Source of the DNA: a bacterium
GTDB lineage: Bacteria > Margulisbacteria > Marinamargulisbacteria > JAHFDA01
Length of the DNA stretch: 64,000 nucleotides
Assembly (NCBI GenBank): GCA_023249225.1
Contig: JAHFDA010000008.1
Coordinates: 4,331-68,330, forward strand
Direction of reading: 5' to 3'
Numbering within the stretch: position 1 is the stretch's first letter; each line of letters begins with the position of its first letter. Below are positions 9,765-57,212 of the stretch, piece after piece. Under the pieces are notes generated by a model. It did not search any database and was not told the origin of the DNA. It saw nothing but the letters and a program-made list of their open reading frames with translations. A program made the translations under genes and the position numbers.

Positions 9765-9839
9765 GTCTTTTGATAATATTAACTTGATAACCCGCTCAAG
9801 GTCTTGCCACGGTTTTCAATAGTATAGAAGGAGGTTTCG

Positions 9840-10275: not shown

Positions 10276-10352
10276 CCCGGATTATTCACGCATATGAAGC
10301 GGATACCTACACACGGGAGCCCGCTGCAAGAAGGTATGAATAGTGCGGGCTA
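10273..10352 (+). repeat. Copy B of the approximately 80-nt dispersed palindromic element
   Basis: TAACCCGGATTATTCACGCATATGAAGCGGATACCTACACACGGGAGCCCGCTGCAAGAAGGTATGAATAGTGCGGGCTA. It starts on the hicA stop codon. The outer arms CCCGGATTATTCA / TGAATAGTGCGGG can pair. Confidence 0.85.
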
Positions 10353-10359
10353 AAAGTTT

Positions 10360-14530: not shown

Positions 14531-15673
14531 CTAAGATAAGAACCTCCCCTGCTCCAAAAACTTGCAGCAACGGGTGTAGTCCCAAAGTTGGCAGCGTGCC
14601 TTGGGATATTGTTTTTGAAACGCCGCCAGGCCGCTGTGTTTATCCTTAAATCCGGATTTAATTTCGATGGCGAATAAATCATTGGGCGTGCGCAGCACAA
14701 AATCAACTTCGGCGTTATTGTCACGCCAATAGAACAACTCCGTATCGGGCAACATGGCCAGGTGGGCGCCCATGATCGATTCGAACACAAAACCATACCA
14801 GCCGGGCTCCTTGATCAGGCGGGTTTGGGGTACGTAAGCATGAATCAGGGCCGGATTCAGCACTATAATCTTGGGGCTGGAATCCTTTATCCGTATTTCG
14901 GAGCCTGAATATTTTTGCAGGGCCCGTATCAGGTAACTTTTTTGCAACAAATCAAGATAGCCCTTGATGGTGGTGGCGTTGCCTCGATCCTGTAGCTGTC
15001 CCAACATTTTTTGCAAACTGATGATATGCGCCGGGTGCCGCACTGCCAGTTCAAACGTTTGCCGAAAAAGCGCCGGCTTATGCACCGGGTTCAGCTGATA
15101 AATATCCTTGCTGATCACCGTCTCCACAATGCTGTTTAAAATATAGTGTTTCCACCGGACAGCATCGCCCTTAAAAGGAATCGCGCCCGGATAAGCTCCC
15201 CACTTCATATAGGTATTTAGATCCCATCCAAAGGCCTGATGGCATTCCAGAAAAGACCAGTGCGGCACTTCGGTCAGCTCAAAACGTCCGGTTAAACTCT
15301 CGCTTAATCCCTTTTGTAAAAACAAGCTGGATGAACCCATCAGTGCCACCTTGATCCGGCCCCGGCCACGTTCCTGGTCAAACAACTGCTTGATGACTTC
15401 GCTCCAGCCGGTCACCTTTTGAATTTCATCAAAAATCAGCAGTGTGTTGGGACCTTGGGCCAGGGCTTCCTGCCAATGCACCCTGATCCAATCTGCTCCC
15501 GGCGGACTGGGATCGTCGGCGCTGACCATGAATTTGGGCCCCTTCCAGCGGTTAAAAATCCATTGGGCGCCCGTGGTTTTACCCACCTGGCGCGGGCCCA
15601 GAATCATTTGCAACAACGGGGCTTTTTCCTGTAAGCGTTTAAGCAGCGTTTTTTGAAATTCCCGTTCAATCAT
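14531..15673 (-). CDS. ATP-binding protein, AAA_14 + DUF4143 architecture
   Basis: 380-aa ORF. Walker A GPRQVGKTT, Walker B LLIFDEIQK. C-terminal restriction-endonuclease-like EVDFVL...AIEIKSG motif typical of DUF4143 ATPases. Paralog of 57213-58355. Confidence 0.85.
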   Translation of the reverse strand: MIEREFQKTLLKRLQEKAPLLQMILGPRQVGKTTGAQWIFNRWKGPKFMVSADDPSPPGADWIRVHWQEALAQGPNTLLIFDEIQKVTGWSEVIKQLFDQERGRGRIKVALMGSSSLFLQKGLSESLTGRFELTEVPHWSFLECHQAFGWDLNTYMKWGAYPGAIPFKGDAVRWKHYILNSIVETVISKDIYQLNPVHKPALFRQTFELAVRHPAHIISLQKMLGQLQDRGNATTIKGYLDLLQKSYLIRALQKYSGSEIRIKDSSPKIIVLNPALIHAYVPQTRLIKEPGWYGFVFESIMGAHLAMLPDTELFYWRDNNAEVDFVLRTPNDLFAIEIKSGFKDKHSGLAAFQKQYPKARCQLWDYTRCCKFLEQGRFLS

Positions 15674-15759: not shown

Positions 15760-17805
15760 CTAAGGCAAGCGCACTCCCCGCCGTTTCAAAAACGGACGCA
15801 ATAAGTTTTTGGCGTCTATTAGCTTTTGACAGATACGTTGACGCGTCACGTTTTTCTCGCTGACGCCCAGTTCCGCCGCGTGGTCGCCGATTTCCTGCAG
15901 GGACATTTTTTCGCAACCGTACCCGTGGGACAGGGCAATCAGGCGCGCCTCTACGGGATACTTTTGGCGGAACTGATCGAGCGCGTCCGCCACGGAGTGA
16001 TCCCATGAGCGTTTGGCCAGGATTTCGTCGTGCAGCTCGGCTTCGTCGGCCACATAATCGCCAAGGTCCGTATCGCCGTCTTCGGAAACGGGCTGGTCGA
16101 GCGAGGTCTTGTTGTCAAAATACAAGAACTCAATCACTCCGGGTTTAAGCACCTCGTGCAGCAGGCCCGGGGTTTCATCCAGTTCGGTGGCCAGGGCCTG
16201 CATTTGATCGTTGGAGTAATTCCGCAATTCTTCGAGCGTTAATGCGTTTACAAAACAGAAACGGTTAATCTTGCTGATGGCGACCGCAACATATCTGGGC
16301 ATGCTGCTAAGGTTGTCCCAGTAAAGTGACATGCGCTGAAAGGCCCAGTGGGAGGCATAGGTTGTAAATTTGTTTCCCGATTCCACGTCATAGGTTTTTG
16401 CGCCCCGCGTAAAGCCCTCGATGCATAAATCGACCAACGTGGTGACCAGCTCGGAGTCCGGCTCGAAGACGCCTTTACTATGGAGAAACGCATAAGTCAT
16501 TTTTTGCGCCAGCCGCAGGTGGCTTAGTACCAGACGGTCGCACAAAACCTTATCCATGCGGTCGTCGGCAATGTACTGCTGCCACAGCGCTTTTTCAGTT
16601 TCCCAGGGCAGGTGCTTGAAATCCTCCGGGGACACGGGCCGCGGCTGGGGTTTGCGTGCAAGCACGGGGTGCGGAGGTGATAGGTACTGCTCGCCTTCTT
16701 TGAGTACAAAGGTCAGCGTTTGGGTCTGGCGCGCAAGTACATTTTCCAAAGCATCCACTTCGATGCGCCACTGTCGGATACCGGCTTCCACGTGGCCATA
16801 ACAGCGCATCCAAAGTTCTTTGCCGCGCCACGAATCGGGCAAACCCGACAGCAGAAAGAAGATTCGCGTCCTGCGACCATTCACAACGGCCTGAATGCGC
16901 GTGACTTCAAACCCTTTTTTAACGATGCCCGACACGGTAGATTCTTCCAATGTTGGCAGGCGTTTGACGGTGACCATGTCAAATTTACCCGGACGAACGC
17001 GTTGCAACCACGCGCTCAACTGCATGCCAAACATATGCGGTTCGGCCTCGACCAGCCGTTGGAGTGGTTCAATGTAGGGATTCCATCGCAGGGCGTAGGG
17101 TAAAAAAACGCTGTCCTGGGTGATGAGGCGTTGGTCGTAAATTGCGGGCGCAATCCCGTCTTGCGGTTGAAGCTCCTCTAGTCGCACCGCATCGTAAACG
17201 TGAGCGCCAACTTTAATTTTAAAAGTTTGCGCCCGCACTTGAGTCACTTCCGGCGGCATGGGGCCCATGTCGACACATTGGCCGGCCTTTACGGCGGTGT
17301 ACAAGGACACCAGGTGGTTACTTGGATACACATCGAGCACATGCGCGGGTGGTGGCGCCAGTCGTGTGCCAGAAAAATATTCCAAAAGCCATTGCTTCCA
17401 AGACGCGGTCAGCGAGGGGCCGGCCAGCTGCTCGGCGCGTTCGAACAGTTTATTCCCCAGACGCAGCACAAAAATCATTTCGGGAGACTGGGGCCGCTTT
17501 AAGGGACGCACACATATTTGCCAGGCAGTTTGGTTCTCAAGTTTCGCGTTGAAGAAGCGTGCCTCCAAAGGCCTGTTTAGCCATTCCGGCGGAAATCCGC
17601 GCAGTTCCAAACCGATGCTTTTTCCGCGCCATTCTAGCAAGAGCACACGAACGTCATTGCGGATGCTAATGTCAAAACGGCGTGTCGGTGGCGGGGTGGT
17701 CGGAGCGTCGGCGAGCAGCCAGGCCCGCGCCTTTTTACCCCATAGGATATTCCACGACCGTCCGCCGTACTCGGGGGAGGTTGCAATTTGTTTTAGGCGG
17801 AACAC
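15760..17805 (-). CDS. Sigma-70 family protein with approximately 400-aa uncharacterised N-terminal extension
   Basis: 681-aa ORF (GTG start). The C-terminal 280 aa aligns by eye to sigma regions 2-4: NKFTTYASHWAFQRM (2.3/2.4), MPRYVAVAISKINR (3.0), SLDQPVSEDGDTDLGDYVADE (3.2), EARLIALSHGYG...MSLQEIG...VSEKNVTRQRICQKLIDAKNLLR (4). The N-terminus contains two copies of a G-x-P-x-x-W ... W-x-I-x-V ... FVL module. Confidence 0.8.
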   Translation of the reverse strand: MFRLKQIATSPEYGGRSWNILWGKKARAWLLADAPTTPPPTRRFDISIRNDVRVLLLEWRGKSIGLELRGFPPEWLNRPLEARFFNAKLENQTAWQICVRPLKRPQSPEMIFVLRLGNKLFERAEQLAGPSLTASWKQWLLEYFSGTRLAPPPAHVLDVYPSNHLVSLYTAVKAGQCVDMGPMPPEVTQVRAQTFKIKVGAHVYDAVRLEELQPQDGIAPAIYDQRLITQDSVFLPYALRWNPYIEPLQRLVEAEPHMFGMQLSAWLQRVRPGKFDMVTVKRLPTLEESTVSGIVKKGFEVTRIQAVVNGRRTRIFFLLSGLPDSWRGKELWMRCYGHVEAGIRQWRIEVDALENVLARQTQTLTFVLKEGEQYLSPPHPVLARKPQPRPVSPEDFKHLPWETEKALWQQYIADDRMDKVLCDRLVLSHLRLAQKMTYAFLHSKGVFEPDSELVTTLVDLCIEGFTRGAKTYDVESGNKFTTYASHWAFQRMSLYWDNLSSMPRYVAVAISKINRFCFVNALTLEELRNYSNDQMQALATELDETPGLLHEVLKPGVIEFLYFDNKTSLDQPVSEDGDTDLGDYVADEAELHDEILAKRSWDHSVADALDQFRQKYPVEARLIALSHGYGCEKMSLQEIGDHAAELGVSEKNVTRQRICQKLIDAKNLLRPFLKRRGVRLP

Positions 17806-17879
17806 AGTATAAATCGTTTAAGGCGGGGTTTGATTGCATGCAATTTTCTTTAATTTAGAACAGCTTGGGGCCAAGCACC

Positions 17880-18245
17880 CTATCCCAAATCCATTAACAC
17901 ACGAATGTTATCGCGCACCTGGCGCATGATGGATTCTGAAACCTGGCCCAATTGCTTTTTCAGCCGTTGGCAGTCAATGGCGCGTAACTGATCGATCAGG
18001 ATATCCGAGGGGACTTTTAAGCCAGAAACTTTTGAAGCGGCAACATGCACCCGTAGTAACGTGACGTTGAGTTTTACCAGGCTGCTAAGCGGGCAGACGA
18101 TGACGGTGGGATGTATGGGATTGAGCAGGTCGCTTTGAACCACCAACACCGGACGCTGTTTGCCGGGTTCAGCGCCCCGTTTGGGTTCTAAATCGGCCAC
18201 ATAAATGTGCCCGGATCTTGGCAGCAGGGTTTTAACCGATTTCAT
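17880..18245 (-). CDS. mazF: Type II toxin, MazF/PemK family endoribonuclease
   Basis: SGHIYVADLEPKRGAEPGKQRPVLVVQSDLLN ... QLRAIDCQRL pattern. I chose the ATG at 18245 (14-nt overlap with the upstream antitoxin). The longest ORF extends to 18296. Confidence 0.85.
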   Translation of the reverse strand: MKSVKTLLPRSGHIYVADLEPKRGAEPGKQRPVLVVQSDLLNPIHPTVIVCPLSSLVKLNVTLLRVHVAASKVSGLKVPSDILIDQLRAIDCQRLKKQLGQVSESIMRQVRDNIRVLMDLG

Positions 18246-18468
18246 CTTCCAGGGCTTCAAACTCCCGCAAGACATCCAGGCTTTCTGTAGAGACAAGGCG
18301 CGATTCGTATTGTAGTTGCTTGCCGAGCTGTTTGCGTTTTTGGTACTTATTCATAAATGCAATGGCCCGATTGATGTATGCGTTGCGCGAGATATCCAGC
18401 TTTTTAAGCACAGACTCGGTTTCTGAATAAACCGCATCATCGAGTTTTAAAGACAAGGCTTTCGACAT
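18232..18468 (-). CDS. Ribbon-helix-helix (CopG/MazE-like) antitoxin
   Basis: 78-aa ORF. The N-terminal LSLKLDDAVYSETESVLKKLDISRNAYINRAIAFMN is a typical RHH. Acidic C-terminus. Overlaps the mazF start. Confidence 0.75.
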   Translation of the reverse strand: MSKALSLKLDDAVYSETESVLKKLDISRNAYINRAIAFMNKYQKRKQLGKQLQYESRLVSTESLDVLREFEALEDEIG

Positions 18469-18578: not shown

Positions 18579-18608
18579 TGAAATTTATCACGATTCTTAT
18601 CGATAAAT
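18579..18608 (+). promoter_or_regulatory. Approximately 30-nt promoter-like element TGAAATTTAT-N8-TTATCGATAWWT (copy 1)
   Basis: TGAAATTTATCACGATTCTTATCGATAAAT lies 31 nt before the ATG at 18639. It aligns with 21791-21820. It contains the perfect palindrome TTATCGATAA. It can be read as -35 TGAAAT / 17-nt spacer / -10 GATAAA. Confidence 0.5.
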
Positions 18609-18638: not shown

Positions 18639-19298
18639 ATGATCAACATGCTTTTCCGTAGAGTTTCATTGGCGCAGGTGCCCGTGGCTGCCGTTGAAGC
18701 CGCTCCCAGGATTGAAGTACCCAGGACGGCACTGGAATTGATAAACATAATTGGCGAAGTGCGGCAGATTGAATTACCCGGTGGACAAAAAGTCAGCATC
18801 ACTGTACTCAAGGCCCGTGAACTAATGGCGTATCTCGGAGTAGACAGCCTTACGTCTGTTTACCAGAAGGCTGGCTTAAGTATCCAGTTTGATGCGGACA
18901 ACATGATCAACAGATTCGGCATGTTGATTAATCAGGACAAGCCGATGACTGAAGCAATTCTTGACGCCGTTGTGGCCAAAGCCAAAGAACAAAATTTGAC
19001 GAAGGCCGATGCGCTGGGCATGTTAAACCTGCGCGCTTCCCGAATAGCGTATGAAAAACTGCACGCGGAAAACTTTCACAGTAAATCTGGTGTTTATTGG
19101 TTCTGGACTGCAGAAAAGTTTTTGGGGCACTTTGAGGAGAGTCGATATCCTAAAGCAGCAGTTGTAAGGTCAAATAATATTGATAGAAGTCGTGATAGCC
19201 GCTTTTGTCTGCGTAATGTTAGTAACGACAATTGGTATGGCTTCGTTCTTGCTAATCGTTACAACTATGAGGGTGTCGTCTTTGGCCTGCCCGATTAG
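18639..19298 (+). CDS. Hypothetical protein (no recognisable domain)
   Basis: 219-aa ORF with good SD (AAGGGG 8 nt upstream). Followed by two small hairpins and a T-rich tract at about 19325-19372. Confidence 0.6.
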   Translation: MINMLFRRVSLAQVPVAAVEAAPRIEVPRTALELINIIGEVRQIELPGGQKVSITVLKARELMAYLGVDSLTSVYQKAGLSIQFDADNMINRFGMLINQDKPMTEAILDAVVAKAKEQNLTKADALGMLNLRASRIAYEKLHAENFHSKSGVYWFWTAEKFLGHFEESRYPKAAVVRSNNIDRSRDSRFCLRNVSNDNWYGFVLANRYNYEGVVFGLPD

Positions 19299-19679
19299 AC
19301 TCAATTCAGTCCTTGGTTCTTGTCCGCCCGTGCGGATGCGCTTAAGGCGCAGAAAATTTGTTTTAATTTAAAGTGGGTGGCGCGGTTTCCGCGCTCACAA
19401 CGCTATGTGTTTGGCCCCGTGATTATATTTTTTGTGTCGGAGGCGTAAAAAACTTAAATCTGCGTCTGCGGGCAAAATACCGGGCCAAACTTTTAGTTCG
19501 GACGGCATCAAGAACGAGAAAACGACTTTTTCAACAGCCTAAAGCTGTCGCAACCAGACCCGCCTTGACGGCCTTAAGATGACGCGGATAGTTGGCTTTG
19601 ACTTGACGCATTCATCGGTATTAGGGATTAGGGATTGCCTGCAATTTCCCCCCAGATCACCCGATAAAGCCTTACTCCC

Positions 19680-21017
19680 ATGCTACGCAAGAAAATCAGC
19701 GTCCCGCCAGAAAACCAGGTGGTCGAAGAATTCTCCGGCGACACGCTGACGTTAAAACCGGGCATGGCGGTCAGTCTGGCCGAACTGATGGATTCTGTCG
19801 ACGCCAGCATGGATTTTTACTTGCGCCGACTAAAACAAGAAGGTAAAGCCGAAGCGTCGGTCTGGCTGGAAATATTTTCCAAAAAACCGCTCTCGGAACA
19901 GCTCCGCAATCTGTACAGCGGGCAACTGGATTTTTCTTCGGATCAAGTTCTGTCGGCTGCGGAACTTTACCACCTGTTGCACCAGGAGTTGGCGGGAGGT
20001 ACTTACAACATGTTTGCGCGTTGCCTGGGAGCAGCCCAAATTCAGCAAACAGCGCGCCTGAATAAAATTTCGCTGCTTGCCGCTGCCGGACGGTTGTGGT
20101 TTGAATGTGACGATATTACAAGTGCCGATCACATGTACATATTCGAAAATTATTTTGGCGACTATCTTATTAACGCCTACTTTGACCGCCATCCCAAGCC
20201 CCATAACTTTAAAATCGATTTACATTTGCTTATGACCCATCTGATTCCTGCGATTGCCATTTGCGACTTTAGCGAGGACGACAAGCTGCGTTTTATTCAC
20301 AGCCTATTGTTTTTACTCCACTCCGACGCCGATAACGCCACATTAGAAACATTTCTTAACACGGTCCTAAAAGCCAAAGAAACAATTCCCGAAAACGCGG
20401 TGTTGGTTGATTTGGACGCAGCGCTGGCTGAAATACGGGTTTTGTTCCAAACCCATTTTCCGTCCTGCTGGCTGGCGGGCGACTACGAACTCAAGGCCCG
20501 CATCGTCCGTTACAAGGGCCGGGACAAGGAGCATCTCGAAATCGTTCCGCCGGACAATATGTATTTTGACGAACCCCGAAACATCGAAGCGCCGGACGAC
20601 GAGTTTCCGCCCGACGGGAATATTGTGTCCCGCAACGAGTATTCCAAACTCATCTGCAAGGACGGATCGGTATTTCTTCCCAACGGGCAAAAAGTATTTT
20701 GGGGCGACTTGCGGCACGAGGATATCTGTCATCTCAAAGGTGTCTACTACGTGCTTAGTCAGGAAGATTCGTTTCACCAGGTGCCGGAGGATTTTGTGAT
20801 GGTGGAAGCCCTCTTTCCGGCGGATGACCCGCATCGTCCGTCTGAAGAAGAAAGAGCACACTTTCAGCGCGGGTTCGAAGAAGCAATGGGTATTCCGGAG
20901 GGACCGCTTCTACAGCCTAAACGCGACAAGGTGGCGCTGCATCCTGATTACGTGCGCCTCAAGGCCCGGGGGCGGATTGAAAATGGCGTGTTTGTGGAGA
21001 ATTCAATCAGGATTTAA
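19680..21017 (+). CDS. Hypothetical protein (no recognisable domain)
   Basis: 445-aa ORF, the only long ORF in this interval. No obvious SD. Acidic, helix-rich N-terminal half and a beta-like C-terminal half by composition. Confidence 0.6.
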   Translation: MLRKKISVPPENQVVEEFSGDTLTLKPGMAVSLAELMDSVDASMDFYLRRLKQEGKAEASVWLEIFSKKPLSEQLRNLYSGQLDFSSDQVLSAAELYHLLHQELAGGTYNMFARCLGAAQIQQTARLNKISLLAAAGRLWFECDDITSADHMYIFENYFGDYLINAYFDRHPKPHNFKIDLHLLMTHLIPAIAICDFSEDDKLRFIHSLLFLLHSDADNATLETFLNTVLKAKETIPENAVLVDLDAALAEIRVLFQTHFPSCWLAGDYELKARIVRYKGRDKEHLEIVPPDNMYFDEPRNIEAPDDEFPPDGNIVSRNEYSKLICKDGSVFLPNGQKVFWGDLRHEDICHLKGVYYVLSQEDSFHQVPEDFVMVEALFPADDPHRPSEEERAHFQRGFEEAMGIPEGPLLQPKRDKVALHPDYVRLKARGRIENGVFVENSIRI

Positions 21018-21060: not shown

Positions 21061-21732
21061 TTAGCTTCGGATTTGCCGATACGCAAGATTGAATAGGTAC
21101 GCCAAAAATGCCAACGGAAAAACCGCCAGGTCAGCCACGTTATAAATACGTTCGTGGTAACGAATAAAATCCAGTGCGCCATCAATCAGCACTATGGATG
21201 GTAGCGTATTGCCCCCGATCATCACCGCTAGACCGGCCAAGCTGTAGTTGACCACATGTTGGAATTCAATGCAGGCACGCAAAGCCTTTGACTTAAAAGC
21301 TTCATCATAATTTGGATTTTGAGAAAAACTGGGCAGTGCCACCCGGTCAAGGCCATGCAGCATCAGGCGTAGTGCCAGCAAACTAACGCTGGCCCATAAA
21401 AAGATTTCTAGTTCCGCGTCCATGGTGAGCGTCAGCTGACGGCTGACCACCACGCCATATTGTTTTAAATAATCTTCTACAAACTGCCATCTAAAGAGAT
21501 TGATCGGTGTGCGGGCATAATGAAATTCGGGGTAAAAAGAAAACGGCCCCAGGCCGAAATAGCCTGTTTTGCTAAAGATCACGGGCACCCAGGCTTTGCT
21601 AAGCCAATCCAAGGCCAACATGCCAACGAAGTAACTTACATACTTGCGATCCGTCACGCTGATGGCGCGCAGTTCGGCCAGCGAAAATTGCAAAGGGTGC
21701 TCATGTTCGGCCAATTTACGGCAAAGCAACAT
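21061..21732 (-). CDS. Hypothetical membrane protein (about 4 TM)
   Basis: 223-aa ORF with four hydrophobic stretches. Divergently transcribed from the 778-aa sigma-like gene (93-nt spacer). Confidence 0.6.
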   Translation of the reverse strand: MLLCRKLAEHEHPLQFSLAELRAISVTDRKYVSYFVGMLALDWLSKAWVPVIFSKTGYFGLGPFSFYPEFHYARTPINLFRWQFVEDYLKQYGVVVSRQLTLTMDAELEIFLWASVSLLALRLMLHGLDRVALPSFSQNPNYDEAFKSKALRACIEFQHVVNYSLAGLAVMIGGNTLPSIVLIDGALDFIRYHERIYNVADLAVFPLAFLAYLFNLAYRQIRS

Positions 21733-21790
21733 ACTTTATATCGTTAACCGGGTGTAGGGGTTTCAATCGGGACTGGGTTTAGCAGATTTA

Positions 21791-21820
21791 TGAAATTTAT
21801 ATCTGATTTTATCGATATTT
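21791..21820 (+). promoter_or_regulatory. Approximately 30-nt promoter-like element (copy 2), immediately upstream of the 778-aa sigma-like gene
   Basis: TGAAATTTATATCTGATTTTATCGATATTT. The -10-like GATATT ends 7 nt before the ATG at 21826, and there is no SD, so the mRNA may be leaderless or nearly so. Confidence 0.5.
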
Positions 21821-21825
21821 AGTAC

Positions 21826-24162
21826 ATGGCTATTTCAGTCAGATTGCAACTGCGGCAACTGGCCGCACCACTTCGAAATGTGGATCCCACTGTTCCGCGT
21901 GTGGAGTCTAATCGTTCCGAAGTCAACGTTCCAGATGTAGGATCCGCAGGAGTGGCGCGTTGGCTGGTATTGGCGCCTGTAGACGACTATGGTGGTGTGA
22001 CGCTGCTGGTCGGCAAAAAACGTTTTTATCTGGGACAGCCCATTGGCAAGCGCTTTCAAGACCGCATACTTCCGCTGCTCGTGGTACAGAAGGGTTCCAA
22101 AGTGGAGGTCACCCAGCCACGTGCGCGAATTTCCAACGTGGAATTTTTGTGTCAGTGGGAGCTTGATCTTGAAAGCGATCAGGTGACGCTTCAACGCGGC
22201 CCACGGCAGTTTGTGGTCAGCGCGCCGGATCAGCGCCACATTAACGTTGATGGTGTACAGTATTTTTTGTTCACCGGCAATTCCCAGGGGCCGAGATATT
22301 TTGAACGGCAGGCGGATGGCACGCGGCGCGTGCTGGGGTTCAAACCGGAACTGCGTCCCATTGAGCCCAATTTTATTTTCCGTTCCGAAGATGGGCGCGC
22401 GGTGGCCTGGATGGTCAGCCATTCTGTGCATTACCGCGACATGGCGGAACTGAAAACGTTTTGCCGCAGCACGTATGTCTTTCGGTTTTTACGCCAAAAG
22501 GGCCGGCTGCCCCAGCTTTACGTTGATAACGCGCTGCATTACGAAGATGGCACTTCCGAGTCCATACGCCTCACCGAGAAGATGACCGCGGCAACGCTCA
22601 AAGCCAGTGGACTTCTTTCTGACGACAGCAATGTTGAAAGCGAAATAAATCGGTTGGCGGACAGTCGCGCCACCGTGCCGCTCGACGTCAGTTTTTCGGG
22701 CGGAATGCCTTATGCCGTGCATCTTTTGCAGAGCCAGGGTGGCCGGGCGCTTTGGTATTTTCGGCGTGTGCTGGATACGCGCACTTTGCAGGCCAGCGAA
22801 TTTTCGCTTAAATATTTCCGACAGATTGGCCATAGCAACCGGTTTTTGGTGGCCGAAAATCTGCCGACCCATATTGTTCAAAAAGGCAAATTTTTTTACG
22901 AAACGGCAGACATAATTAGCAAAACGTTTTATCTGCGCTCATCCGCCGAACCCATTGCTTCCCGCCGGGTTCATCTGGTTGTAGACAAAGAAAGCAACAC
23001 GGTGTTGGCGGCAGTGGCCGATCCAGCCGGCCCATTTAACCCGCAACTTGTATATCGCGTTATTAACCAACAGAGCTTTAAAAGTGAAAAGTTTTTACGT
23101 CAACTCGAAAAGCTGGGATGTTTTGGCATGGCGCAGCAGCTCCAAAAGGAACTGACTGCCGGGCAAAAACCAATTCATCTGCCCGGTTTGGAGTGGATCG
23201 ACGATCCAAGTTTGCGGGAACACGTGCGCGAGTGTGTGCGCTCGGCCCCATCCGAGGCTGAAAAATATGCGTTGTGGACCCAATTCGTGCGCGGTGGGCG
23301 TAAAGACATGGGATTGCTGCATGAGTTAGTGGCATACGAACTCGGTTACATTCTGATGATCACCCGGCGGGAAGTAGGTGCTTATCCCCGCCAGCTCTTT
23401 ACCGAATTCTTCAAATCGGCCATCGAAGGCGCTGTCATTGCCGGTTTGCCTGGTCCCAAGCGCGAAGGTTATGCCCCTGGTCGCGGCACGCCCTTTAGAA
23501 CTTACATGGAAATGTGGTGCGTGGCATACATCCAGCAGAATGACGCCTACAAACGTGGCGTGGTACCCATGGATCAGCGGCGCGTGTGGCGAATCAATCA
23601 GGTGATCGAGGCCATGCAGTATTTGCGCGTTAGCAAAGATCAAGCGCTGGAGGACCTCCAGAAGCTGGACGAAATTGCCGGACTGCTCAAAATGAGGCCG
23701 GGCGAAGTAAAACTTATTCTTCAGCACGATTTGGATACCTACCAGCAAAACCGTGGTCCACGCTCGTTCGACGCGCCGGTCGGCAACGAACACGATGGCG
23801 ACAACGAAACTTCCCTGCTTGATCTGACCGGCTCAGACGAAGGTTCGCAGATTATCGAAAAGCAAGCCGTCCACAGAACCTTGCGACAACTCTTGGACAC
23901 GTTGGCATCCGAACTGCCCCGCGAAGCTGCTGTGGTGGCCCTGGCCTTTGGCCAGCATCCGCAGGTACCAAACGAAGTGGCAGGCAATGAAATCGGCAAG
24001 CAGTATTACCACTTGATTCCCAGGACTTCCAAATACACAGGCCCAGCGCAACCTTTAAGTTCCACGGCCGTCCGAAAACTGCTACAAGACGGTCTGGCGC
24101 GCTTGCGTGCACTGATGGATGTCCAAGGGTTAACCGCCCTTGATTTTGATCTGGCGGGTTGA
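21826..24162 (+). CDS. Highly divergent sigma-70 family protein with approximately 490-aa uncharacterised N-terminal region
   Basis: 778-aa ORF. The C-terminal 280 aa parallels sigma regions 2-4: LFTEFFKSAIEGAVIAG (2.2-like), TPFRTYMEMWCVAYIQ (2.3/2.4), VPMDQRRVWRINQVIEA (3.0), SFDAPVGNEHDGDNETSLLDLTG (3.2), REAAVVALAFG ... LSSTAVRKLLQDGLARLRA (4). Confidence 0.7.
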   Translation: MAISVRLQLRQLAAPLRNVDPTVPRVESNRSEVNVPDVGSAGVARWLVLAPVDDYGGVTLLVGKKRFYLGQPIGKRFQDRILPLLVVQKGSKVEVTQPRARISNVEFLCQWELDLESDQVTLQRGPRQFVVSAPDQRHINVDGVQYFLFTGNSQGPRYFERQADGTRRVLGFKPELRPIEPNFIFRSEDGRAVAWMVSHSVHYRDMAELKTFCRSTYVFRFLRQKGRLPQLYVDNALHYEDGTSESIRLTEKMTAATLKASGLLSDDSNVESEINRLADSRATVPLDVSFSGGMPYAVHLLQSQGGRALWYFRRVLDTRTLQASEFSLKYFRQIGHSNRFLVAENLPTHIVQKGKFFYETADIISKTFYLRSSAEPIASRRVHLVVDKESNTVLAAVADPAGPFNPQLVYRVINQQSFKSEKFLRQLEKLGCFGMAQQLQKELTAGQKPIHLPGLEWIDDPSLREHVRECVRSAPSEAEKYALWTQFVRGGRKDMGLLHELVAYELGYILMITRREVGAYPRQLFTEFFKSAIEGAVIAGLPGPKREGYAPGRGTPFRTYMEMWCVAYIQQNDAYKRGVVPMDQRRVWRINQVIEAMQYLRVSKDQALEDLQKLDEIAGLLKMRPGEVKLILQHDLDTYQQNRGPRSFDAPVGNEHDGDNETSLLDLTGSDEGSQIIEKQAVHRTLRQLLDTLASELPREAAVVALAFGQHPQVPNEVAGNEIGKQYYHLIPRTSKYTGPAQPLSSTAVRKLLQDGLARLRALMDVQGLTALDFDLAG

Positions 24163-24174
24163 TTGAACCAAAGC

Positions 24175-24912
24175 CTAGTTTTCCGTGAGTATCTTGTGTA
24201 AAGCTTCCAGATGTCCTGCCGTCACCGCCGCCAGCATGCTGGTTTTGTTGGGATTCTGGGCAAACATTTCAACAATGGTTTTGGTTTTATAACGCTCCCA
24301 AGGTTCATCAAGGCCTGACAGCCAGTTGCCAAACTGGTTTACTCCCAATGTGGCTATTTGATAAACAATGCCAGAAAGTCCAAACAGTGCCACTACGCCA
24401 GCAGCCCATAAAAGCTCTCTGCGACTTAAAGCCATCTCCCACAGTGCCCGTCGATATATCAGCGCTGCGCTTGTGGCTGCCAAAAGTGCTGGTGGCCAGT
24501 ACAGCAACGCACGCGTGCGTACGCCCGGAACCCAACCCGCTTCCAGATGAAAGGCGTGATGTTTTTCTTCAAGGTGCCGCATGAACTGTTCACTTGTGGA
24601 CGCCAGGCCCAAATAACGAAAGCCGGTATCGATCAGCATCTGAAGAATTTGCCCCTCCCATGCTCCACGCAAGTCACGCCGTTCAAAGCCGTAAAGGTCA
24701 AAGTCGTTTGTATCACACACACGTTCGGCGCTTTGAAGGTCGGCCTCACCTGCGCCATTCGCAATGCCTAAAAGCACCAGCTGGCGGGGGATACCCTCAA
24801 CGGTCAACGGGACATAAAGCGCCTGAACTTTACCGGCCTGCGCATTGATCTGTTCAACAAGCAGCACACGAAAAGGTTCAGTGCTTACGGCAATCTGGCG
24901 ATGATGCATCAC
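24175..24912 (-). CDS. Hypothetical protein with soluble N-terminal half and 2-3 C-terminal TM segments
   Basis: 245-aa ORF, convergent with the sigma-like gene (12-nt gap). Hydrophobic stretches ALLYWPPALLAATSAALIY and LLWAAGVVALFGLSGIVYQIATLGV. Confidence 0.55.
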   Translation of the reverse strand: MMHHRQIAVSTEPFRVLLVEQINAQAGKVQALYVPLTVEGIPRQLVLLGIANGAGEADLQSAERVCDTNDFDLYGFERRDLRGAWEGQILQMLIDTGFRYLGLASTSEQFMRHLEEKHHAFHLEAGWVPGVRTRALLYWPPALLAATSAALIYRRALWEMALSRRELLWAAGVVALFGLSGIVYQIATLGVNQFGNWLSGLDEPWERYKTKTIVEMFAQNPNKTSMLAAVTAGHLEALHKILTEN

Positions 24913-24944
24913 GTACTATTTATCGTGGCAGGGCAAAGAAAGTT

Positions 24945-25142
24945 TCATTTTGCTTTCTTTCGTTCAAGTTCCAATGCTTTCTCAACCGGCATCCACACAG
25001 CCTTACCCTTATGCATGACTGCAATGGGAATACCGAGTCGGCGGTTTTCTTCGAGTACTTTACGTACGGCATCTTGCAGGGATTTTTCGGCCCGACGTCC
25101 TTCGGCAGAAGGGCGCGAGTCGATTTTTTTTGGTTTAGCCAT
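24945..25142 (-). CDS. Small basic protein, putative partner/antitoxin of the zeta-like ATPase
   Basis: 65-aa ORF whose ATG overlaps the stop of the upstream ATPase gene by 8 nt (ATGGCTAA), suggesting translational coupling. Confidence 0.55.
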   Translation of the reverse strand: MAKPKKIDSRPSAEGRRAEKSLQDAVRKVLEENRRLGIPIAVMHKGKAVWMPVEKALELERKKAK

Positions 25143-25725
25143 AGTTTGCCTGCTTCTTGATAAGCGAAAAAATCTTTGGTTGCACTATTTTCTCATGGCC
25201 GTTTGATTTCTCATAAATGAGTTTCGGATGAGCCGAGGTGTTATCCAAAATTGCAACATAATCCAATACCGAAAGGTAGTGGTGAAATAAATTAAAAATT
25301 CCTTTTTGATAACGGCGTTTTATAACGTGGTTGGGAATATGATGGCCGCCACGTTTCACGCGCTGCGCAACCCTTTTAATCGCCAAAGTAGCTTCTGGAA
25401 CCCATAAAAAGTACAGATGAAAGCGATATCCTTTTTGGCGTAGCTTACCAAGGAGTTGAACGTACGATAGACCCGATAGCGTGGTTTCAAAAGCAAAATC
25501 AACGCCTAACGTAATCTGAAGGGCGATCTGTTTTAAAAACAAACGGCCGGCTTGCATCGCAGCGGTATCAACACTAAGGGGCGAGAGTCCGTGCGCTAAA
25601 AGGTCGGCGTTTATAAAATTTCGACAACCCGCGATCACAGGCAGGTAATTAAGGGCAAACGTGGTTTTTCCAGACCCGTTTGGGCCAGCGATAATGTAGA
25701 CGGATTTGGTGTTTTTGGATGTCAT
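25135..25725 (-). CDS. Zeta-toxin-like / predicted ABC-type P-loop ATPase (COG4185-like)
   Basis: 196-aa ORF. Walker A GPNGSGKTTF near the N-terminus, FAFETTLSG and YFLWVP blocks, and RVKRGGHHIP characteristic of this kinase-like family. Confidence 0.8.
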   Translation of the reverse strand: MTSKNTKSVYIIAGPNGSGKTTFALNYLPVIAGCRNFINADLLAHGLSPLSVDTAAMQAGRLFLKQIALQITLGVDFAFETTLSGLSYVQLLGKLRQKGYRFHLYFLWVPEATLAIKRVAQRVKRGGHHIPNHVIKRRYQKGIFNLFHHYLSVLDYVAILDNTSAHPKLIYEKSNGHEKIVQPKIFSLIKKQANYG

Positions 25726-25857
25726 GAGCGGGCCGTACTTTATTGTATCGCGAGACTTGGGTCAGGGTTATTTATATCATTTTTTGACTGTAGATTTTTT
25801 CCTGAATTCTTTTTTACCAATCTCCGATAATAAACAAATTCTTACGGAGGTTGTCCT

Positions 25858-26409
25858 ATGACTTCAGTGATAGGTTTAGCGGTAGCCTTGGCGGCATGTA
25901 CCCCCAGGCCAGTTCAAATTCAGGATGTCTGTGAGCAGACCCCGAGCTTTGGTTGCTATCAAAAGGTGCTTTGGAATTCCAATGTTTTTCCTGAACAATC
26001 ATTCAAGGCACTGGAGTGGATGTGGAATCAAGCCGTGCTTGAAAATGCGCGTATGATTTCGGGCGAGAAAGATGTCAAAACGCCCGCCACCGAAATGCTT
26101 TATGAAACTGCCGAAGACAATGCCATTCCCGCTGTCCGGAATCAGGCACGTGAATATCTCAAAGCTTTATACCCGCACACCGCACGCACGATATACCAGT
26201 TACTGCGGGTGATCTATCAGGTATCGCCAGAACATCCGACGCCAGCGCAACGGATTGAAGCCTTGCAATGGTTGCTGCAGAACAATAGCAACGAACCGGA
26301 GATTGTGGATTTGAAAGCCAATTACACAAAATATTTTTCGGATGCCAACGATCCGGTACATCAATTTCTCGATCAACATGTGGGTGTATCAGTTCCTCTG
26401 CCAGATTGA
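25858..26409 (+). CDS. Hypothetical lipoprotein
   Basis: 183-aa ORF. Signal peptide with lipobox LAAC (GLAVALAAC). SD GGAGG 7 nt upstream. Confidence 0.6.
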   Translation: MTSVIGLAVALAACTPRPVQIQDVCEQTPSFGCYQKVLWNSNVFPEQSFKALEWMWNQAVLENARMISGEKDVKTPATEMLYETAEDNAIPAVRNQAREYLKALYPHTARTIYQLLRVIYQVSPEHPTPAQRIEALQWLLQNNSNEPEIVDLKANYTKYFSDANDPVHQFLDQHVGVSVPLPD

Positions 26410-27534: not shown

Positions 27535-27726
27535 ATGAGAACTACATTAAACCTTAATGACCAGAAAATAGCCGAGGCCATGAAAGCCACCGGCATCCAC
27601 GAAAAAACCAGCCTGATCCACCATGCGCTGGATCTGGTCTTGCAGGAACAGGCACGGCAAAATCTGATTAAAATGCATGGTATTTACAAACACGCCTCCG
27701 CCCCCCGCAGACGCCGTTTTTCATGA
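27535..27726 (+). CDS. vapB: Type II antitoxin, VapB family (DUF2191-like)
   Basis: 63-aa ORF. MRTTLNLNDQKIAEAMKATGIHEKTSLIHHALDLVL pattern. 4-nt overlap (ATGA) with vapC. Confidence 0.8.
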   Translation: MRTTLNLNDQKIAEAMKATGIHEKTSLIHHALDLVLQEQARQNLIKMHGIYKHASAPRRRRFS

Positions 27727-28097
27727 TCGTGGTCGACACCTCTGTCTGGATCGACTATTTTGCCGATCCCGGTAGAGTATCCAATCTGGAGCAGCTCCTG
27801 CGTGACAACGTTGTTGTGGTGCATCCATGGATTCTGGGAGAAATTGCTTTGGGCCATCTGGGATCACAACGTCGTGCAATTTTGGGTAATTTAAGCCGTC
27901 TTCCCAAAACCAATGTCCATCTTGAATCAGAGATCATGCTCTTTATGGACAAGCTCACCTTGTGGGGCCAAGGGCTTTCATGGACGGACATTCAGATCCT
28001 GTACACCTGTCAGATCGGATCATTGAAATTGTGGACACTCGACAAGGCGTTGAAGCGATCTGCCCAAAAGCTGGATTGTACCTACGTGCCCGGTTAA
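27723..28097 (+). CDS. vapC: Type II toxin, VapC family PIN-domain ribonuclease
   Basis: 124-aa ORF. MIVVDTSVWIDYF N-terminus (PIN Asp), HPWILGEIALG, and a C-terminal acidic residue in WTLDKAL. Confidence 0.85.
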   Translation: MIVVDTSVWIDYFADPGRVSNLEQLLRDNVVVVHPWILGEIALGHLGSQRRAILGNLSRLPKTNVHLESEIMLFMDKLTLWGQGLSWTDIQILYTCQIGSLKLWTLDKALKRSAQKLDCTYVPG

Positions 28098-28131: not shown

Positions 28132-28863
28132 TTAAGACCCAATATCTTTTAAATCAAAAACATAGCCTTGCTTTCGGGGACGGTTTTGGGTAGCCACAAT
28201 TAAAAAGCGTTTTTCAGCGATTCGGTCAGGGCTGCAATGCAGTTCGGTGCCACCCCAAAAATAGATGATGCCTGGGTCAAAGCGTATGACATTCAATAAA
28301 CCATCATCGAGCAATGTTTGTAGTTTCTCTTGAAAGTCCCCCCCTGCCCAAGGGATGCGCGCCACATCAAGGAACTCGGTTGAGCCACCAAAAGAAATTC
28401 CAAAACGGCTGTCAACCGCATCGGTATGCCACTTGTTAGTGCTTTGTCTTGGACCGACACGCAAGTCAATTTCTAACCGTTGACGGTAGAGTTTTTCGCT
28501 TCCATATAGATTTTCAAGCGCTTGGACAAAAGCTTTTAACAAAGGATTCAACCCACGGACATTCCACTGATCGATCTGGCCATGCGTCATGCCGTTGAAT
28601 CTTGCACTGGGGCCCAAATACAAAGCAGAATCCGCATTTTGAATTTCAACCAGCGGGTTTGGAAAATACACCAAGGGCTTGCTGCAACGGGGCCGGGGTG
28701 TAAATAAGCGTACACCATCGGGATATCCCAGGGTTCTACGGATGGTCAAAATCCGTTCCGCAAGTTCTGCAGATACGCCGGGATCTGAAAGGTCCGTATA
28801 AAAATCAGGCCGTGTCACCTCAAGAGGTCGGTGGGCAATATGTTTTTGATGGCTTCTAACCAT
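28132..28863 (-). CDS. Hypothetical protein, possible Fe(II)/2-oxoglutarate-oxygenase-like (HxD...H) fold
   Basis: KWHTDAVD and GGTELHCSP give an HxD...H pattern. The longest ORF runs to 28965 but would overlap the mnmG start head to head by 48 nt, so the internal ATG at 28863 is preferred. Confidence 0.5.
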   Translation of the reverse strand: MVRSHQKHIAHRPLEVTRPDFYTDLSDPGVSAELAERILTIRRTLGYPDGVRLFTPRPRCSKPLVYFPNPLVEIQNADSALYLGPSARFNGMTHGQIDQWNVRGLNPLLKAFVQALENLYGSEKLYRQRLEIDLRVGPRQSTNKWHTDAVDSRFGISFGGSTEFLDVARIPWAGGDFQEKLQTLLDDGLLNVIRFDPGIIYFWGGTELHCSPDRIAEKRFLIVATQNRPRKQGYVFDLKDIGS

Positions 28864-28917
28864 GTAAAAACTATCGTATTTTTTGGGCTTTTGAATCAAG
28901 GTTGTTAAAATCTCCCC

Positions 28918-30792
28918 ATGCCCTCTGCCCAAACCTACCAAGTTATCGTCATCGGTGCCGGACATGCCGGTATCGAGGCGTCTCTGGCGTCGGCGCGGAT
29001 GGGCTGCCCTACCCTGTTGCTGACAGCCAGTATCAATACCATCGGAAAAATGTCCTGTAACCCGGCTATCGGCGGACCCGCCAAGTCACATCTTGTTTTT
29101 GAGATGGATGCTCTGGGGGGTTACATGGGCTGGGCAGCAGACCAGACCGCCTTGCAACTTAAAATGCTGAACACCTCAAAGGGCCCGGCCGTTTGGTCGC
29201 TGCGGGCCCAAAGCGACATGTACGCCTACCAGCGTTTGGCACAACAGACCGTATGTGGGCAGGCCAATCTGGATGTGCGGGAAAGCATGGTGCTTCGTTT
29301 CCTATATGAAAACGAAGCAGGCAGCTCCAAACGGGTCTATGGTGTTTGCACCCAGGACGGAACCGAATACCGGGCACAGGCCGTGGTTCTGACGACCGGA
29401 ACCTTTATGCGTGGCTTGCTGCATACCGGACTGGTGCATACGCCCGGCGGCCGGGTAGGCGAACAAGCGTCGAATGATATTTCAAGCGCGCTACGCGATC
29501 TGGGAGTCGAACTTGGGCGCCTAAAAACCGGCACGCCTCCGCGCTTGCATCGCGATTCGATCAATTTCTCTGCCATGAAACTTGAGCCCGGAGACGTGCA
29601 GCCTTATCAGTTCAGCACACGTACCGAAAAATTAGACTGTCCTAACATACCGTGCCACCTGACCTACACCAGCGATAAAACGCATCAGATCATTCGTGAT
29701 CACCTGCACGAAAGCCCAATGTACACTGGCAAGATCGAAGGCACGGGGCCGCGTTACTGCCCTTCCATCGAAGATAAAGTGGTCAAATTTGCCGATAAAG
29801 ACCGCCACCAGATTTTTATCGAACCCACTGGGAGGGATCACGTCGAGATGTACCCTTCTGGTTTTTCGACCAGCCTGCCGGCTGAAGCGCAACTTAAAGC
29901 CATGCGCACGTTGCCAGGGCTTGAACAGGTAGAATTTGTGCGCCCGGGTTACGCCGTGGAATATGATTTTGTGTTTCCGCATCAACTTAAGAACACCTTT
30001 GAACTGCAGCGCGTTGAGGGTTTGTATTGCGCCGGCCAAATTTGCGGTACGTCCGGCTACGAAGAAGCTGCCGCCCAAGGCCTGTATGCAGGCATCAACG
30101 CCGCGCTTAAAGTTCAAAGTAAACCAGCCATGGTGCTGACGCGCGACAGTGCATACATCGGCTGTATGATCGACGACCTGATCACCAAAGAGATTACCGA
30201 ACCTTACCGTATGTTTACGGGACGTTCTGAATTTCGTTTGTTGCTTAGACAAGACAATGCCGACATACGTCTGACTTCTTATGGCAGGCGTGTGGGGCTG
30301 GTGGCAGACAGCCAGTGGAATAAATTTGAGCAAAAAAAGATGCACATGCAAGCGTATGTGCAAAAATTAAAAGCGTTGCGCCTCAATCCAGACTCCCCTA
30401 CCCTAGAACGTCTGCATGTTTTGGGTATCTCGATCAAAAAAACACATGCGCTTGATGAAATTCTGAAACGGCCTGAAATCACGCTGGATCGTCTGATTGC
30501 ACTAGGGTTTATTGACGATGGCCTTGACCGGCTTACCCGTCTTAATGTGGAAACAGACATCAAGTACGCAGGCTTTGTTGCGCGGCAACAAGAGCAAGTC
30601 CGTGATTTTCAACAGCTCGAGCGCATACCGCTTCCGGCAAATTTTTCCTATCTGAACTTGACTGGGCTGCGTAAGGAAGCCATGCAAAAACTAGAAAAAT
30701 TACGGCCTGCCAATTTAGGACAGGCTTCGCGGATTGCAGGCGTCAACCCAGCCGATCTTACTGTGCTGATGGTTCAGTTAAAACGCCGGTAA
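28918..30792 (+). CDS. mnmG: tRNA uridine-5-carboxymethylaminomethyl modification enzyme MnmG (GidA)
   Basis: 624-aa ORF. YQVIVIGAGHAGIEA FAD motif, GGPAKSHLV, GPRYCPSIEDK, and a conserved C-terminal QASRIAGVNPAD. Confidence 0.95.
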   Translation: MPSAQTYQVIVIGAGHAGIEASLASARMGCPTLLLTASINTIGKMSCNPAIGGPAKSHLVFEMDALGGYMGWAADQTALQLKMLNTSKGPAVWSLRAQSDMYAYQRLAQQTVCGQANLDVRESMVLRFLYENEAGSSKRVYGVCTQDGTEYRAQAVVLTTGTFMRGLLHTGLVHTPGGRVGEQASNDISSALRDLGVELGRLKTGTPPRLHRDSINFSAMKLEPGDVQPYQFSTRTEKLDCPNIPCHLTYTSDKTHQIIRDHLHESPMYTGKIEGTGPRYCPSIEDKVVKFADKDRHQIFIEPTGRDHVEMYPSGFSTSLPAEAQLKAMRTLPGLEQVEFVRPGYAVEYDFVFPHQLKNTFELQRVEGLYCAGQICGTSGYEEAAAQGLYAGINAALKVQSKPAMVLTRDSAYIGCMIDDLITKEITEPYRMFTGRSEFRLLLRQDNADIRLTSYGRRVGLVADSQWNKFEQKKMHMQAYVQKLKALRLNPDSPTLERLHVLGISIKKTHALDEILKRPEITLDRLIALGFIDDGLDRLTRLNVETDIKYAGFVARQQEQVRDFQQLERIPLPANFSYLNLTGLRKEAMQKLEKLRPANLGQASRIAGVNPADLTVLMVQLKRR

Positions 30793-35548: not shown

Positions 35549-36022
35549 GTGAGCAACGTAAACCGCATTTTCTTGATTGGGCGACTCACTGCAGATCCTG
35601 AATTACGCTATGTCAGCGAAGGCTTGCCGCTGGCTAAGTTTACTTTGGCCGTTGATCGCCCAAAGCGCAATGATGGGGCCAGCATGGCAGATTTCATTTC
35701 AGTCGTCACATGGCGTTCATTAGCTGAAATATGCGGCAAATACCTAAAAAAAGGTCGTTTAATCTATATCGGCGGTCGTATTCAAATTCGCAAATACCAG
35801 ACCACCCAAAACGAAACCCGTTTTGTTACCGAAGTTCTGGCCAACGAAATGAAAATGCTCGATAAGGGCAGTGGTCAGGAACAGGAGCACTTTAAAAAAG
35901 ATGATTTTTCATCGGAACCTGCACATCCGGTAGGGGAGGATCCAGGCTTTTCTGAAAGCAGTGTACCCTTTGGTGAGCCTTTGGGCGAAGCAGTTGCTGT
36001 GGAGGACGATATTCCGTTTTAG
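35549..36022 (+). CDS. ssb: Single-stranded DNA-binding protein (canonical, with acidic tip)
   Basis: 157-aa ORF (GTG start). OB-fold NRIFLIGRLTADPELRY ... FISVVTWRSLAE ... RLIYIGGRIQIRKY. C-terminal EDDIPF tail. Confidence 0.9.
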   Translation: MSNVNRIFLIGRLTADPELRYVSEGLPLAKFTLAVDRPKRNDGASMADFISVVTWRSLAEICGKYLKKGRLIYIGGRIQIRKYQTTQNETRFVTEVLANEMKMLDKGSGQEQEHFKKDDFSSEPAHPVGEDPGFSESSVPFGEPLGEAVAVEDDIPF

Positions 36023-36024
36023 CC

Positions 36025-57108: not shown

Positions 57109-57212
57109 GGAAAATTATCGGAAAAACAGGTAAATTTATGCATCTTAATTAATCGACATACCAGAATCGCGTTAATTATAGAGTATAATATAAATGATAT
57201 ATTTATATTATC

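Follow-up and report, generated by a model that had tools for sequence, protein, structure and literature searches.

In a 64,000-nt stretch of bacterial DNA (the window; assembly GCA_023249225.1, contig JAHFDA010000008.1, positions 4,331-68,330, forward strand), we analysed a gene for a 778-aa protein whose C-terminal part (residues ∼476-770) is, on profile evidence, well supported as a true but extremely diverged sigma-70-family domain of sigma2-sigma3-sigma4 type. The gene lies between two small membrane-protein genes and close to the gene for a 681-aa paralog, and the starts of all four carry the same bipartite promoter-like motif. The explanation we favour, with a probability of about 0.42, is that the protein is a lineage-specific sigma-like protein within a co-regulated set of orphan genes, and not part of a classical sigma/anti-sigma pair. 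Under this explanation, the motif sites probably make up a promoter class of their own, and the genes that follow them one co-regulated set. The 778-aa protein is predicted, at slightly better than even odds, to bind the RNA polymerase core and act as a sigma factor. Its large N-terminal region might, though this is doubtful, act in cis as a sensor or autoinhibitory domain that replaces a separate anti-sigma factor. The two membrane proteins would be co-regulated targets or partners rather than classical anti-sigma factors. Coordinates are collected in Table 1.

The sigma-like domain of the 778-aa protein

The three open reading frames (ORFs) stand exactly where an initial annotation of this DNA had them, with the 223-aa gene divergent across a spacer of 93 nt (21733-21825) and the 245-aa gene convergent across a gap of 12 nt (24163-24174). 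The 245-aa ORF begins at a GTG; independent gene callers choose the ATG one codon later, giving 244 aa. At ∼52% GC, an open frame of 778 codons is far beyond chance.

The annotation had also described the C-terminus as parallel to sigma-70 regions 2-4 at very low identity, and this likeness is recovered by profile methods only. The NCBIfam models for RpoS, RpoD and SigB match residues 547-727 (E = 1.5e-5 to 8e-4), and PHROG 351, ‘RNA polymerase sigma factor’, matches residues 585-725 (E = 3.4e-6). Pfam reported Sigma70_r3 alone (E = 0.049), without r2 or r4. A comparison of hidden Markov models (HMMs), which the annotation had proposed as a check, was run with hhalign against a profile of aligned Escherichia coli RpoD, RpoS, RpoH and FliA, and it found a sigma-70 relationship. 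The C-terminus alone matched over residues 546-770, from late region 2.2 onwards (probability 92.8%, E = 3.9e-7); combined with the 681-aa paralog, it matched over residues 498-770, from region 2.1 (97.7%, E = 2.5e-12). When the two-paralog C-terminal profile was compared with PDB chains, actinobacterial HrdB/SigA was best (E = 3e-7), and every match obtained by tblastn against plasmids was an rpoD or group 2 sigma gene (E about 8e-3).

In a six-sequence alignment the protein is collinear with the E. coli sigma factors from region 1.2/2.1 (residue ∼476) to region 4.2 (∼763). The annotation had begun the sigma part at about nt 23314; collinearity with the paralog and the E. coli proteins begins slightly upstream of this, near residue 470-476. 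Sigma2 is present by profile, and sigma3 and sigma4 are present and collinear with it. The core of regions 2.2-2.3 is kept (EGYAPGRGTPFRTY, against EKFDPERGYRFSTY in E. coli), including the F-x-T-Y-x-x-x-W core of region 2.3 with the equivalents of Y430 and W434. Also retained are the acidic DGD segment of the sigma finger, PREAAVVALAFG in region 4.1 and EIGKQY...VRKLLQDGLARLR in region 4.2. The collinear domains, the region 2.3 core, the DGD segment and the ‘EIG...LRxLR’ outline are shared with group 2 and 3 sigma factors (RpoS, RpoH, FliA), and the absence of region 1.1 likewise gives a layout like that of groups 2 and 3. Unlike those proteins, it is only about 20-27% identical to them, carries an N-terminal extension of ∼470 residues where they have nothing or region 1.1, has insertions in regions 2.2-2.4 and in sigma4.2, and has no homologs outside the contig. 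Because sigma3 is present, the protein is not an extracytoplasmic function (ECF) sigma factor. An origin of the C-terminus from a transposase or another protein with only a helix-turn-helix was considered and rejected, as sigma2 and sigma3 align as well as sigma4.

The paralog, encoded 4 kb away, has the same layout and is the more clearly sigma-like of the two. The proteins align in BLASTP at 25% identity over about 250 residues (E = 1e-8), which agrees with the annotation's second giant sigma in the same island.

For the N-terminal region (residues 1-468), there was no Pfam match at E ≤ 1, no NCBIfam, PADLOC or PHROG match, and no PDB sequence match of note. Its similarity to the N-terminus of the 681-aa protein is at chance level (z = 0.9; hhalign probability 0.1%), so that the annotation was right to call it novel and not obviously related to the N-domain of the paralog. 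Within the 681-aa protein there is a weak repeat (z = 2.7), to which nothing in the 778-aa protein corresponds. A single-sequence AlphaFold2 (AF2) model, with a predicted local distance difference test score (pLDDT) of 36, hints that the first 200 residues are beta-rich and are followed by helices. Kyte-Doolittle analysis gave no hydrophobic segment in the 778-aa protein.

A motif shared by the sigma-like genes and their neighbours

Printing and aligning the upstream regions yielded a bipartite motif of fixed spacing, TGMAW-N17-CGATW(WW). The whole window holds 10 exact matches (1.6 expected). Intergenic copies number nine; in 2000 dinucleotide-preserving shuffles the mean was 0.15, and no shuffle had more than 2. 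The distribution of the copies follows a block at ∼13-29 kb of the window in which orphan genes are interspersed with mobile-type modules: seven copies fall in the 1,949 nt of intergenic DNA of the block and two in the 4,176 nt of intergenic DNA elsewhere. Each of the seven lies just upstream of, and in the sense orientation to, a gene, these being the 681- and 778-aa sigma-like genes and the 219-, 445-, 223-, 245- and 183-aa genes. The toxin-antitoxin, DUF4143 and PDC-S01 ATPase genes, including the ATPase copy at 57 kb, are without a motif of the CGATA class. Outside the block, one copy stands ahead of an M3 peptidase gene, and another lies inside rpsR and is probably there by chance. The annotation had suggested a dedicated transcription module here; in so far as the motif is common to both sigma-like genes, both flanking genes and three or four further orphans, that idea has gained ground, whereas the anti-sigma pairing that went with it has not.

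The two halves of the motif are coupled. CG is found in 8 of the 11 intergenic TGMAW-N17-NNATW sites, and TGMAW stands exactly 17 nt upstream in 8 of the 28 intergenic CGATW sites. In the whole 64 kb there are exactly three copies of an extended form, CGATAWWWAGTA (0.04 expected), and they are the starts of the 223-, 778- and 245-aa genes. At these genes, and loosely at the 243-aa gene, CGATAWWWAGTA(C) ends 0-1 nt before the start codon, a leaderless register. In six genes (223, 778, 245, 243, 681 and M3 peptidase) CGAT is at a fixed distance from the start codon, its C preceding that codon by 11-13 nt; this is the geometry of a leaderless mRNA, with GATAWW as the -10 hexamer. Other leaderless-type genes carry TATAAT, CATAAT or TATACT, of housekeeping type, or TATATT, and since these have T, C or A at -12, the CG at -13/-12 marks a separate class.

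Leave-one-out matrix scores of the sites (16-23) overlap the upper range of the shuffle maxima (11-20), and the case for the motif is made by the count, the coupling, the orientation and the fixed distance to the start codon in combination. A generic sigma-70 promoter scan found 5 promoter-like sites, fewer than in shuffles (9.3), and missed the CGATA class because it required T at hexamer position 6. Terminator-like sites were within the shuffle range (14 against 11.4), and a generic repeat search gave short chance-level repeats, except for the pair that led to the motif.

The sites differ in their flanks. A perfect 12-nt palindrome, ATTGCATGCAAT (17833-17844), overlaps the -35 half of the 681-aa site, and imperfect copies, ATTGCCTGAAA and ATTGCCTGCAA, occupy the equivalent position ahead of the 219- and 445-aa genes; the palindrome may be an operator for a dimeric regulator. 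The 681, 219 and 445 genes share a sub-class ATTGCnTGMAA, and the 223, 778, 245 and 243 genes a sub-class CGATAWWWAGTAC. The sub-classes thus fall in line with the two gene neighbourhoods, which suggests, speculatively, two sub-regulons or an added operator.

At ∼20 of 50 gene starts, an nATAnn hexamer ends 4-9 nt before the start codon (examples are the starts at 58430 (carA), 62709 (kup), 55334, 33449 (parA) and 46376), whilst a Shine-Dalgarno sequence is seen in few. This suggests that leaderless mRNAs are widespread in the source organism.

Possible readers of the motif and possible roles of the membrane proteins

If transcription starts at the start codon, the motif has the register T-35 G-34 M-33 A-32 W-31 ... 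C-13 G-12 A-11 T-10 A-9. Autoregulation is usual for alternative sigma factors, and the chance that at least one of the two giant sigma-like proteins reads the class, and with it its own promoter (positive autoregulation), is a little short of even. A sizeable minority of the probability goes to another host sigma factor, and the remainder to a tolerant housekeeping sigma factor.

The alternative that has to be taken most seriously, although its odds are well below even, is that the CGATA-class promoters are read by such a host factor (sigma-28/FliA-type, stress or tolerant housekeeping) and that the giant sigma-like proteins are members of its regulon. They may then be true sigma factors with other targets, or sigma-derived proteins that are no longer sigma factors. 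The sigma-28 (FliA) promoter is TAAA-N15-GCCGATAA, occurring at Pseudomonas aeruginosa fliC as (-36)TCTAAAG(-30) and (-15)GCCGATAA(-8), and its -12G is read via an Arg at the W434 position (PMC12784957). If the block mRNAs are leaderless, C-13 G-12 A-11 T-10 A-9 and A-33 A-32 A-31 agree with the fliC promoter in sequence as well as in register (PMC12784957), and CGATA is invariant in the place of the sigma-28 core (CGATAA at -13 to -8). At the W434 position the 778- and 681-aa proteins themselves have W, and not the sigma-28 Arg; this favours a different reader of -12G, and at the same time sets the local proteins apart from sigma-28. The carA promoter shares the TGAAT-N17 frame with TT in place of CG, and the -35 half may therefore be generic. 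On the other hand, the block motif departs from the sigma-28 promoter in several respects: the -35 half reads GAAA, GCAA or GAAT against TAAA at -34 to -31, there is G instead of T at -34, and the GC of the extended -10 (-15/-14), which sigma-28 needs, is not conserved. If the one-mismatch copy at the 243-aa gene is included, nine copies are well placed, and eight of them lie within 11 kb around the two sigma-like genes, both of which have one. The genes involved are all lineage-specific orphans, neither flagellar nor stress genes.

The two membrane proteins bear on how the 778-aa protein might be controlled. Their hydrophobic segments are as the annotation had described: by Kyte-Doolittle analysis three of the segments in the 223-aa protein are strong and a fourth is weaker, and the 245-aa protein has a strong segment (165-192) and a weak one (134-153), both in its C-terminal half. 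Neither has a match in the PDB or among plasmids, and the 223-aa protein gave no family match. The annotation had found the arrangement reminiscent of sigma/anti-sigma pairs, and one or both proteins could in principle be an anti-sigma factor anchored in the membrane, which keeps the 778-aa sigma inactive in the absence of a signal. The genes are directly adjacent, the ∼130-residue soluble N-terminal part of the 245-aa protein is loosely like that of single-pass anti-sigma factors, and the extended motif common to all three genes points to co-expression, which fits the role of a partner or target as well as that of an anti-sigma factor. However, as the annotation had itself remarked, no anti-sigma domain is recognisable: searches of both proteins for ASD/ZAS, RskA, FecR and similar domains in Pfam and NCBIfam (at E ≤ 1) and with PADLOC were negative, the only Pfam match of the 245-aa protein is a sub-threshold DUF4131 over its membrane segments, and neither protein has an HxxxCxxC or CxxC motif. 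Known sigma/anti-sigma gene pairs are typically co-transcribed, whereas the two flanking genes run opposite to the 778-aa gene, each behind a promoter-like site of its own. The likeness to RseA-RpoE, RsiW-SigW and FecR-FecI is that a sigma-like gene stands beside small membrane-protein genes; the differences are the missing anti-sigma domain and zinc motif, and the opposed genes with separate promoter-like sites. Neither membrane protein has a homolog in which conservation beside a sigma gene could be seen, and the 470-residue extension of the 778-aa protein could itself regulate in cis, which is the more economical guess. We regard a classical anti-sigma role as very improbable and do not retain the pairing.

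Several results weigh against the explanation that we favour. On the side of the protein, every sigma match of the 778-aa sequence falls far short of the curated cut-off: the Pfam Sigma70_r3 match has 14.2 bits, the gathering score being 25.3, and the best NCBIfam match has 24.6 bits against a cut-off of 378.7 (family cut-offs, 350-580). Alone against single sigma sequences the protein barely matches (E = 0.11). The AF2 models are too poor to be informative (pLDDT 36 for the full protein, 44 for the C-terminal domain with a two-sequence alignment), and a Foldseek search of the PDB returned nothing below E = 0.85, the top match, sigma-70 in 7mkj, not being significant. Insertions break regions 2.2-2.3 and 2.4, and a further one, IPRTSKYTGPAQP, which is absent from the four E. 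coli sigma factors and much shorter in the paralog, separates the helices of the sigma4.2 helix-turn-helix. Several positions that contact DNA carry other residues (W433->M, Q437->A, T440->Q, R584/E585->S/T). Judged from its sequence, then, the protein descends from the sigma-70 family yet fails all curated thresholds and has unusual insertions; because of these insertions and contact changes, core binding and promoter recognition remain predictions. Without homologs, and with only an identical second assembly, the gene has no evolutionary support. On the side of the motif, the pattern was defined after the sites had been seen, and in an unbiased scan of 4-mer dyads TGAA-N18-CGAT came first among the non-palindromic dyads (P about 1.5e-5), a value that fails correction for the ∼4.6e5 dyads. 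In addition, the sigma-28 core, GCCGATAA, is matched by the -10 half of the motif, and one copy stands outside the block, before an M3 peptidase gene. As the window is only 64 kb of the genome, sites of this class could extend across the genome as the regulon of another host sigma factor.

Genomic setting and relation to known systems

The window is chromosomal, holding mnmG, parAB and rpsF-ssb-rpsR-rplI. The modules interleaved in the orphan block are a DUF4143/PDC-S01 ATPase, a MazF-like toxin and its small partner, a zeta-like kinase paired with a 65-aa protein, VapBC and a GNAT-domain protein. GC content is not distinctive. MnmG (28918-30792) is at most 52% identical to its counterpart in any of 185,579 GTDB r232 species representatives, and the source organism thus comes from an essentially unsampled lineage. 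The best MnmG matches are dispersed over Poribacteria, Nitrospira, Verrucomicrobia, Chlamydiota and Planctomycetes, and at the 80 mnmG loci retrieved from GTDB representatives no block protein was matched.

An exhaustive phmmer search of 1.84e9 representatives with the 778-aa protein gave a sigma fragment as the sole non-self match (E = 7e-6). Word-index searches with the 778-aa protein, the 681-aa protein and the alignment of their C-termini found no homolog, nor did a scan of GTDB genomes, two metagenome scans, a viral-contig scan or a phage tblastn search. Seven of the eight proteins checked, including MnmG, are the sole members of their 90%-identity clusters (15 billion sequences), as is true of the 778-aa protein; a 468-aa orphan has one more member. 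Over 8,457 nt a Logan contig (L001) shows 100% identity and, being without variation, is uninformative on selection. The lack of homologs is partly due to the unsampled lineage.

The company of toxin-antitoxin genes raises another explanation, that the giant sigma-like proteins are anti-phage or abortive-infection components like MzaA of mzaABCDE, with an N-terminus that senses infection and a sigma domain that redirects or blocks transcription. According to PMC9523054, MzaA is a sigma factor that belongs to a defence system, and like the proteins here it is large (∼700 aa), sigma-like, has a long N-terminal extension and is found among defence and toxin-antitoxin genes (NF041931; PMC9523054). 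The block is indeed rich in MazF-like, zeta-like, VapBC and PDC-S01/DUF4143 ATPase genes, and the sigma part of the 681-aa protein matches the NCBIfam MzaA model (E = 1.7e-7). However, this match, to the generic sigma part of the paralog alone, reaches 30.5 bits where the cut-off is 800, and the model gave no match to the 778-aa protein. PADLOC found no Mza component or defence family in the sigma-like proteins or their orphan neighbours, mzaBCDE-like genes are not present nearby, and neither phage nor viral contigs held relatives. Membership of MzaA (NF041931) was rejected on the score and the neighbours, and a defence role of this kind is a long shot.

A few other features of the window were noted. 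A second repeat motif, AATAGTSCGGGYTA, has six copies with at most one mismatch (0.06 expected); two inverted pairs, 66-67 nt apart, lie in divergent or long intergenic regions, and one copy borders directly on the TATAAT belonging to the second M3 peptidase gene. The repeat has the look of a further promoter or operator class. One of its inverted pairs, together with GC-rich palindromic dyads, is in a 595-nt segment without an annotated gene (9765-10359), and another such segment, of ∼340 nt (19299-19639), contains a short tandem repeat, ATTAGGGATTAGGGATT. Rfam found only a tRNA-Pro in the window, and nothing in these two segments. Two large orphans without a Pfam domain (654 and 822 aa; 49181-51145 and 51188-53656) form a tandem paralog pair with 26% identity over 540 residues, and the tandem M3 peptidases (53625-55334 and 55369-57108) are 50% identical to each other. 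Judged from the translations only, two neighbouring SSB-like genes (157 and 138 aa; 35549-36441) lie between rpsF and rpsR.

Table 1. Positions in the window of the genes, protein regions and motif sites discussed
Feature	Position (nt)	Strand	Details
778-aa sigma-like gene	21826..24162	+	ORF list; called in two other assemblies
N-terminal ∼468 residues of the 778-aa protein	21826..23229	+	No matching family or homolog (Pfam, HMMER, hhalign searches)
Sigma-70-family domain, residues ∼476-770	23251..24135	+	Profile matches, hhalign, alignments
Region map, 778-aa protein (residues)			1.2/2.1-like 476-515; 2.2 525-549; 2.3 550-571; 2.4 572-590; 3.0-3.1 591-633; 3.2 643-667; 4.1 683-709; 4.2 719-763
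Insertion IPRTSKYTGPAQP in sigma4.2	24016..24054	+	13-15 residues; alignments
681-aa second giant sigma-like gene	15760..17805	-	NCBIfam RpoS 9e-11; PHROG 351 2.4e-20
223-aa gene, divergent	21061..21732	-	3-4 hydrophobic segments; ORF list, Kyte-Doolittle
245-aa gene, convergent	24175..24912	-	1-2 C-terminal hydrophobic segments; ORF list, Kyte-Doolittle
778-aa promoter-like site	21791..21825	+	TGAAA-N17-CGATATTTAGTAC, ATG directly after; C of CGAT at -13 if start at A of ATG
223-aa promoter-like site	21732..21765	-	TGAAA-N17-CGATATAAAGT, then ATG
245-aa promoter-like site	24913..24947	-	TGAAA-N17-CGATAAATAGTAC, then GTG ATG
681-aa promoter-like site	17812..17844	-	TGCAA-N17-CGATTTATACT, then GTG
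Motif and 219-aa orphan gene	18579-18605; gene 18639-19298	+	
Motif and 445-aa orphan gene	19640-19666; gene 19680-21017	+	
Motif and 183-aa orphan gene	25803-25829; gene 25858-26409	+	Protein with lipoprotein-like N-terminus
One-mismatch motif and 243-aa orphan gene	28872-28898; gene 28132-28863	-	Reads CGATAGTTTTTAC before ATG
Motif before M3 peptidase gene	57116..57142; gene 55369-57108	-	12 nt upstream of GTG; sole well-placed copy outside the block
MazF-like module with 78-aa partner	17880-18468	-	Toxin-antitoxin type, in block
Zeta-like module with 65-aa partner	24945-25725	-	Toxin-antitoxin type, in block
VapBC	27535-28097	+	Toxin-antitoxin type, in block
DUF4143/PDC-S01 ATPase in block	14531-15673	-	
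DUF4143/PDC-S01 ATPase, second copy	57213-58355	+	
AATAGTSCGGGYTA copies	4364-4377	-	
	4431-4444	+	
	10273-10286	-	
	10339-10352	+	
	36505-36518	+	
	55345-55358	-	

Returning to the explanation that we favour, its strongest version would make 17.8-28.9 kb a self-contained, autoregulated module, with two giant sigma factors bearing N-terminal sensor or autoinhibitory domains, TGMAW-N17-CGATAWW as their private class of leaderless promoters, present both at the genes for the two proteins and at five or six orphan genes next to them, and possibly two sub-regulons. We consider this unlikely as a whole. Within such a module the 681-aa protein may serve the ATTGCnTGMAA sub-class and the 778-aa protein the CGATAWWWAGTAC sub-class. 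A parallel in concept is cis regulation by a fused domain in ECF41 and ECF42, group 4 sigma factors without sigma3 that have C-terminal fused extensions, are regulated in cis without an anti-sigma factor and usually have a small, local, autoregulated regulon. Unlike them, the 778-aa protein has sigma3, and it carries a much larger extension at its N-terminus.

By itself, it is nothing out of the ordinary for a little-sampled lineage to carry a fast-evolving accessory sigma paralog, and with one genome and no homologs the generality of the finding is limited. If the proteins are active sigma factors, they would represent a sigma-70 architecture extended by an N-terminal domain of ∼470 residues, with an interrupted sigma4 helix-turn-helix and possibly regulated in cis without an anti-sigma factor. 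The candidate sigma factor, its candidate promoters and its candidate regulon all lie within 11 kb, a compact, directly testable and rare test case. In terms of method, shared cis-elements can tie orphan genes together functionally where phylogenetic co-occurrence is inapplicable.

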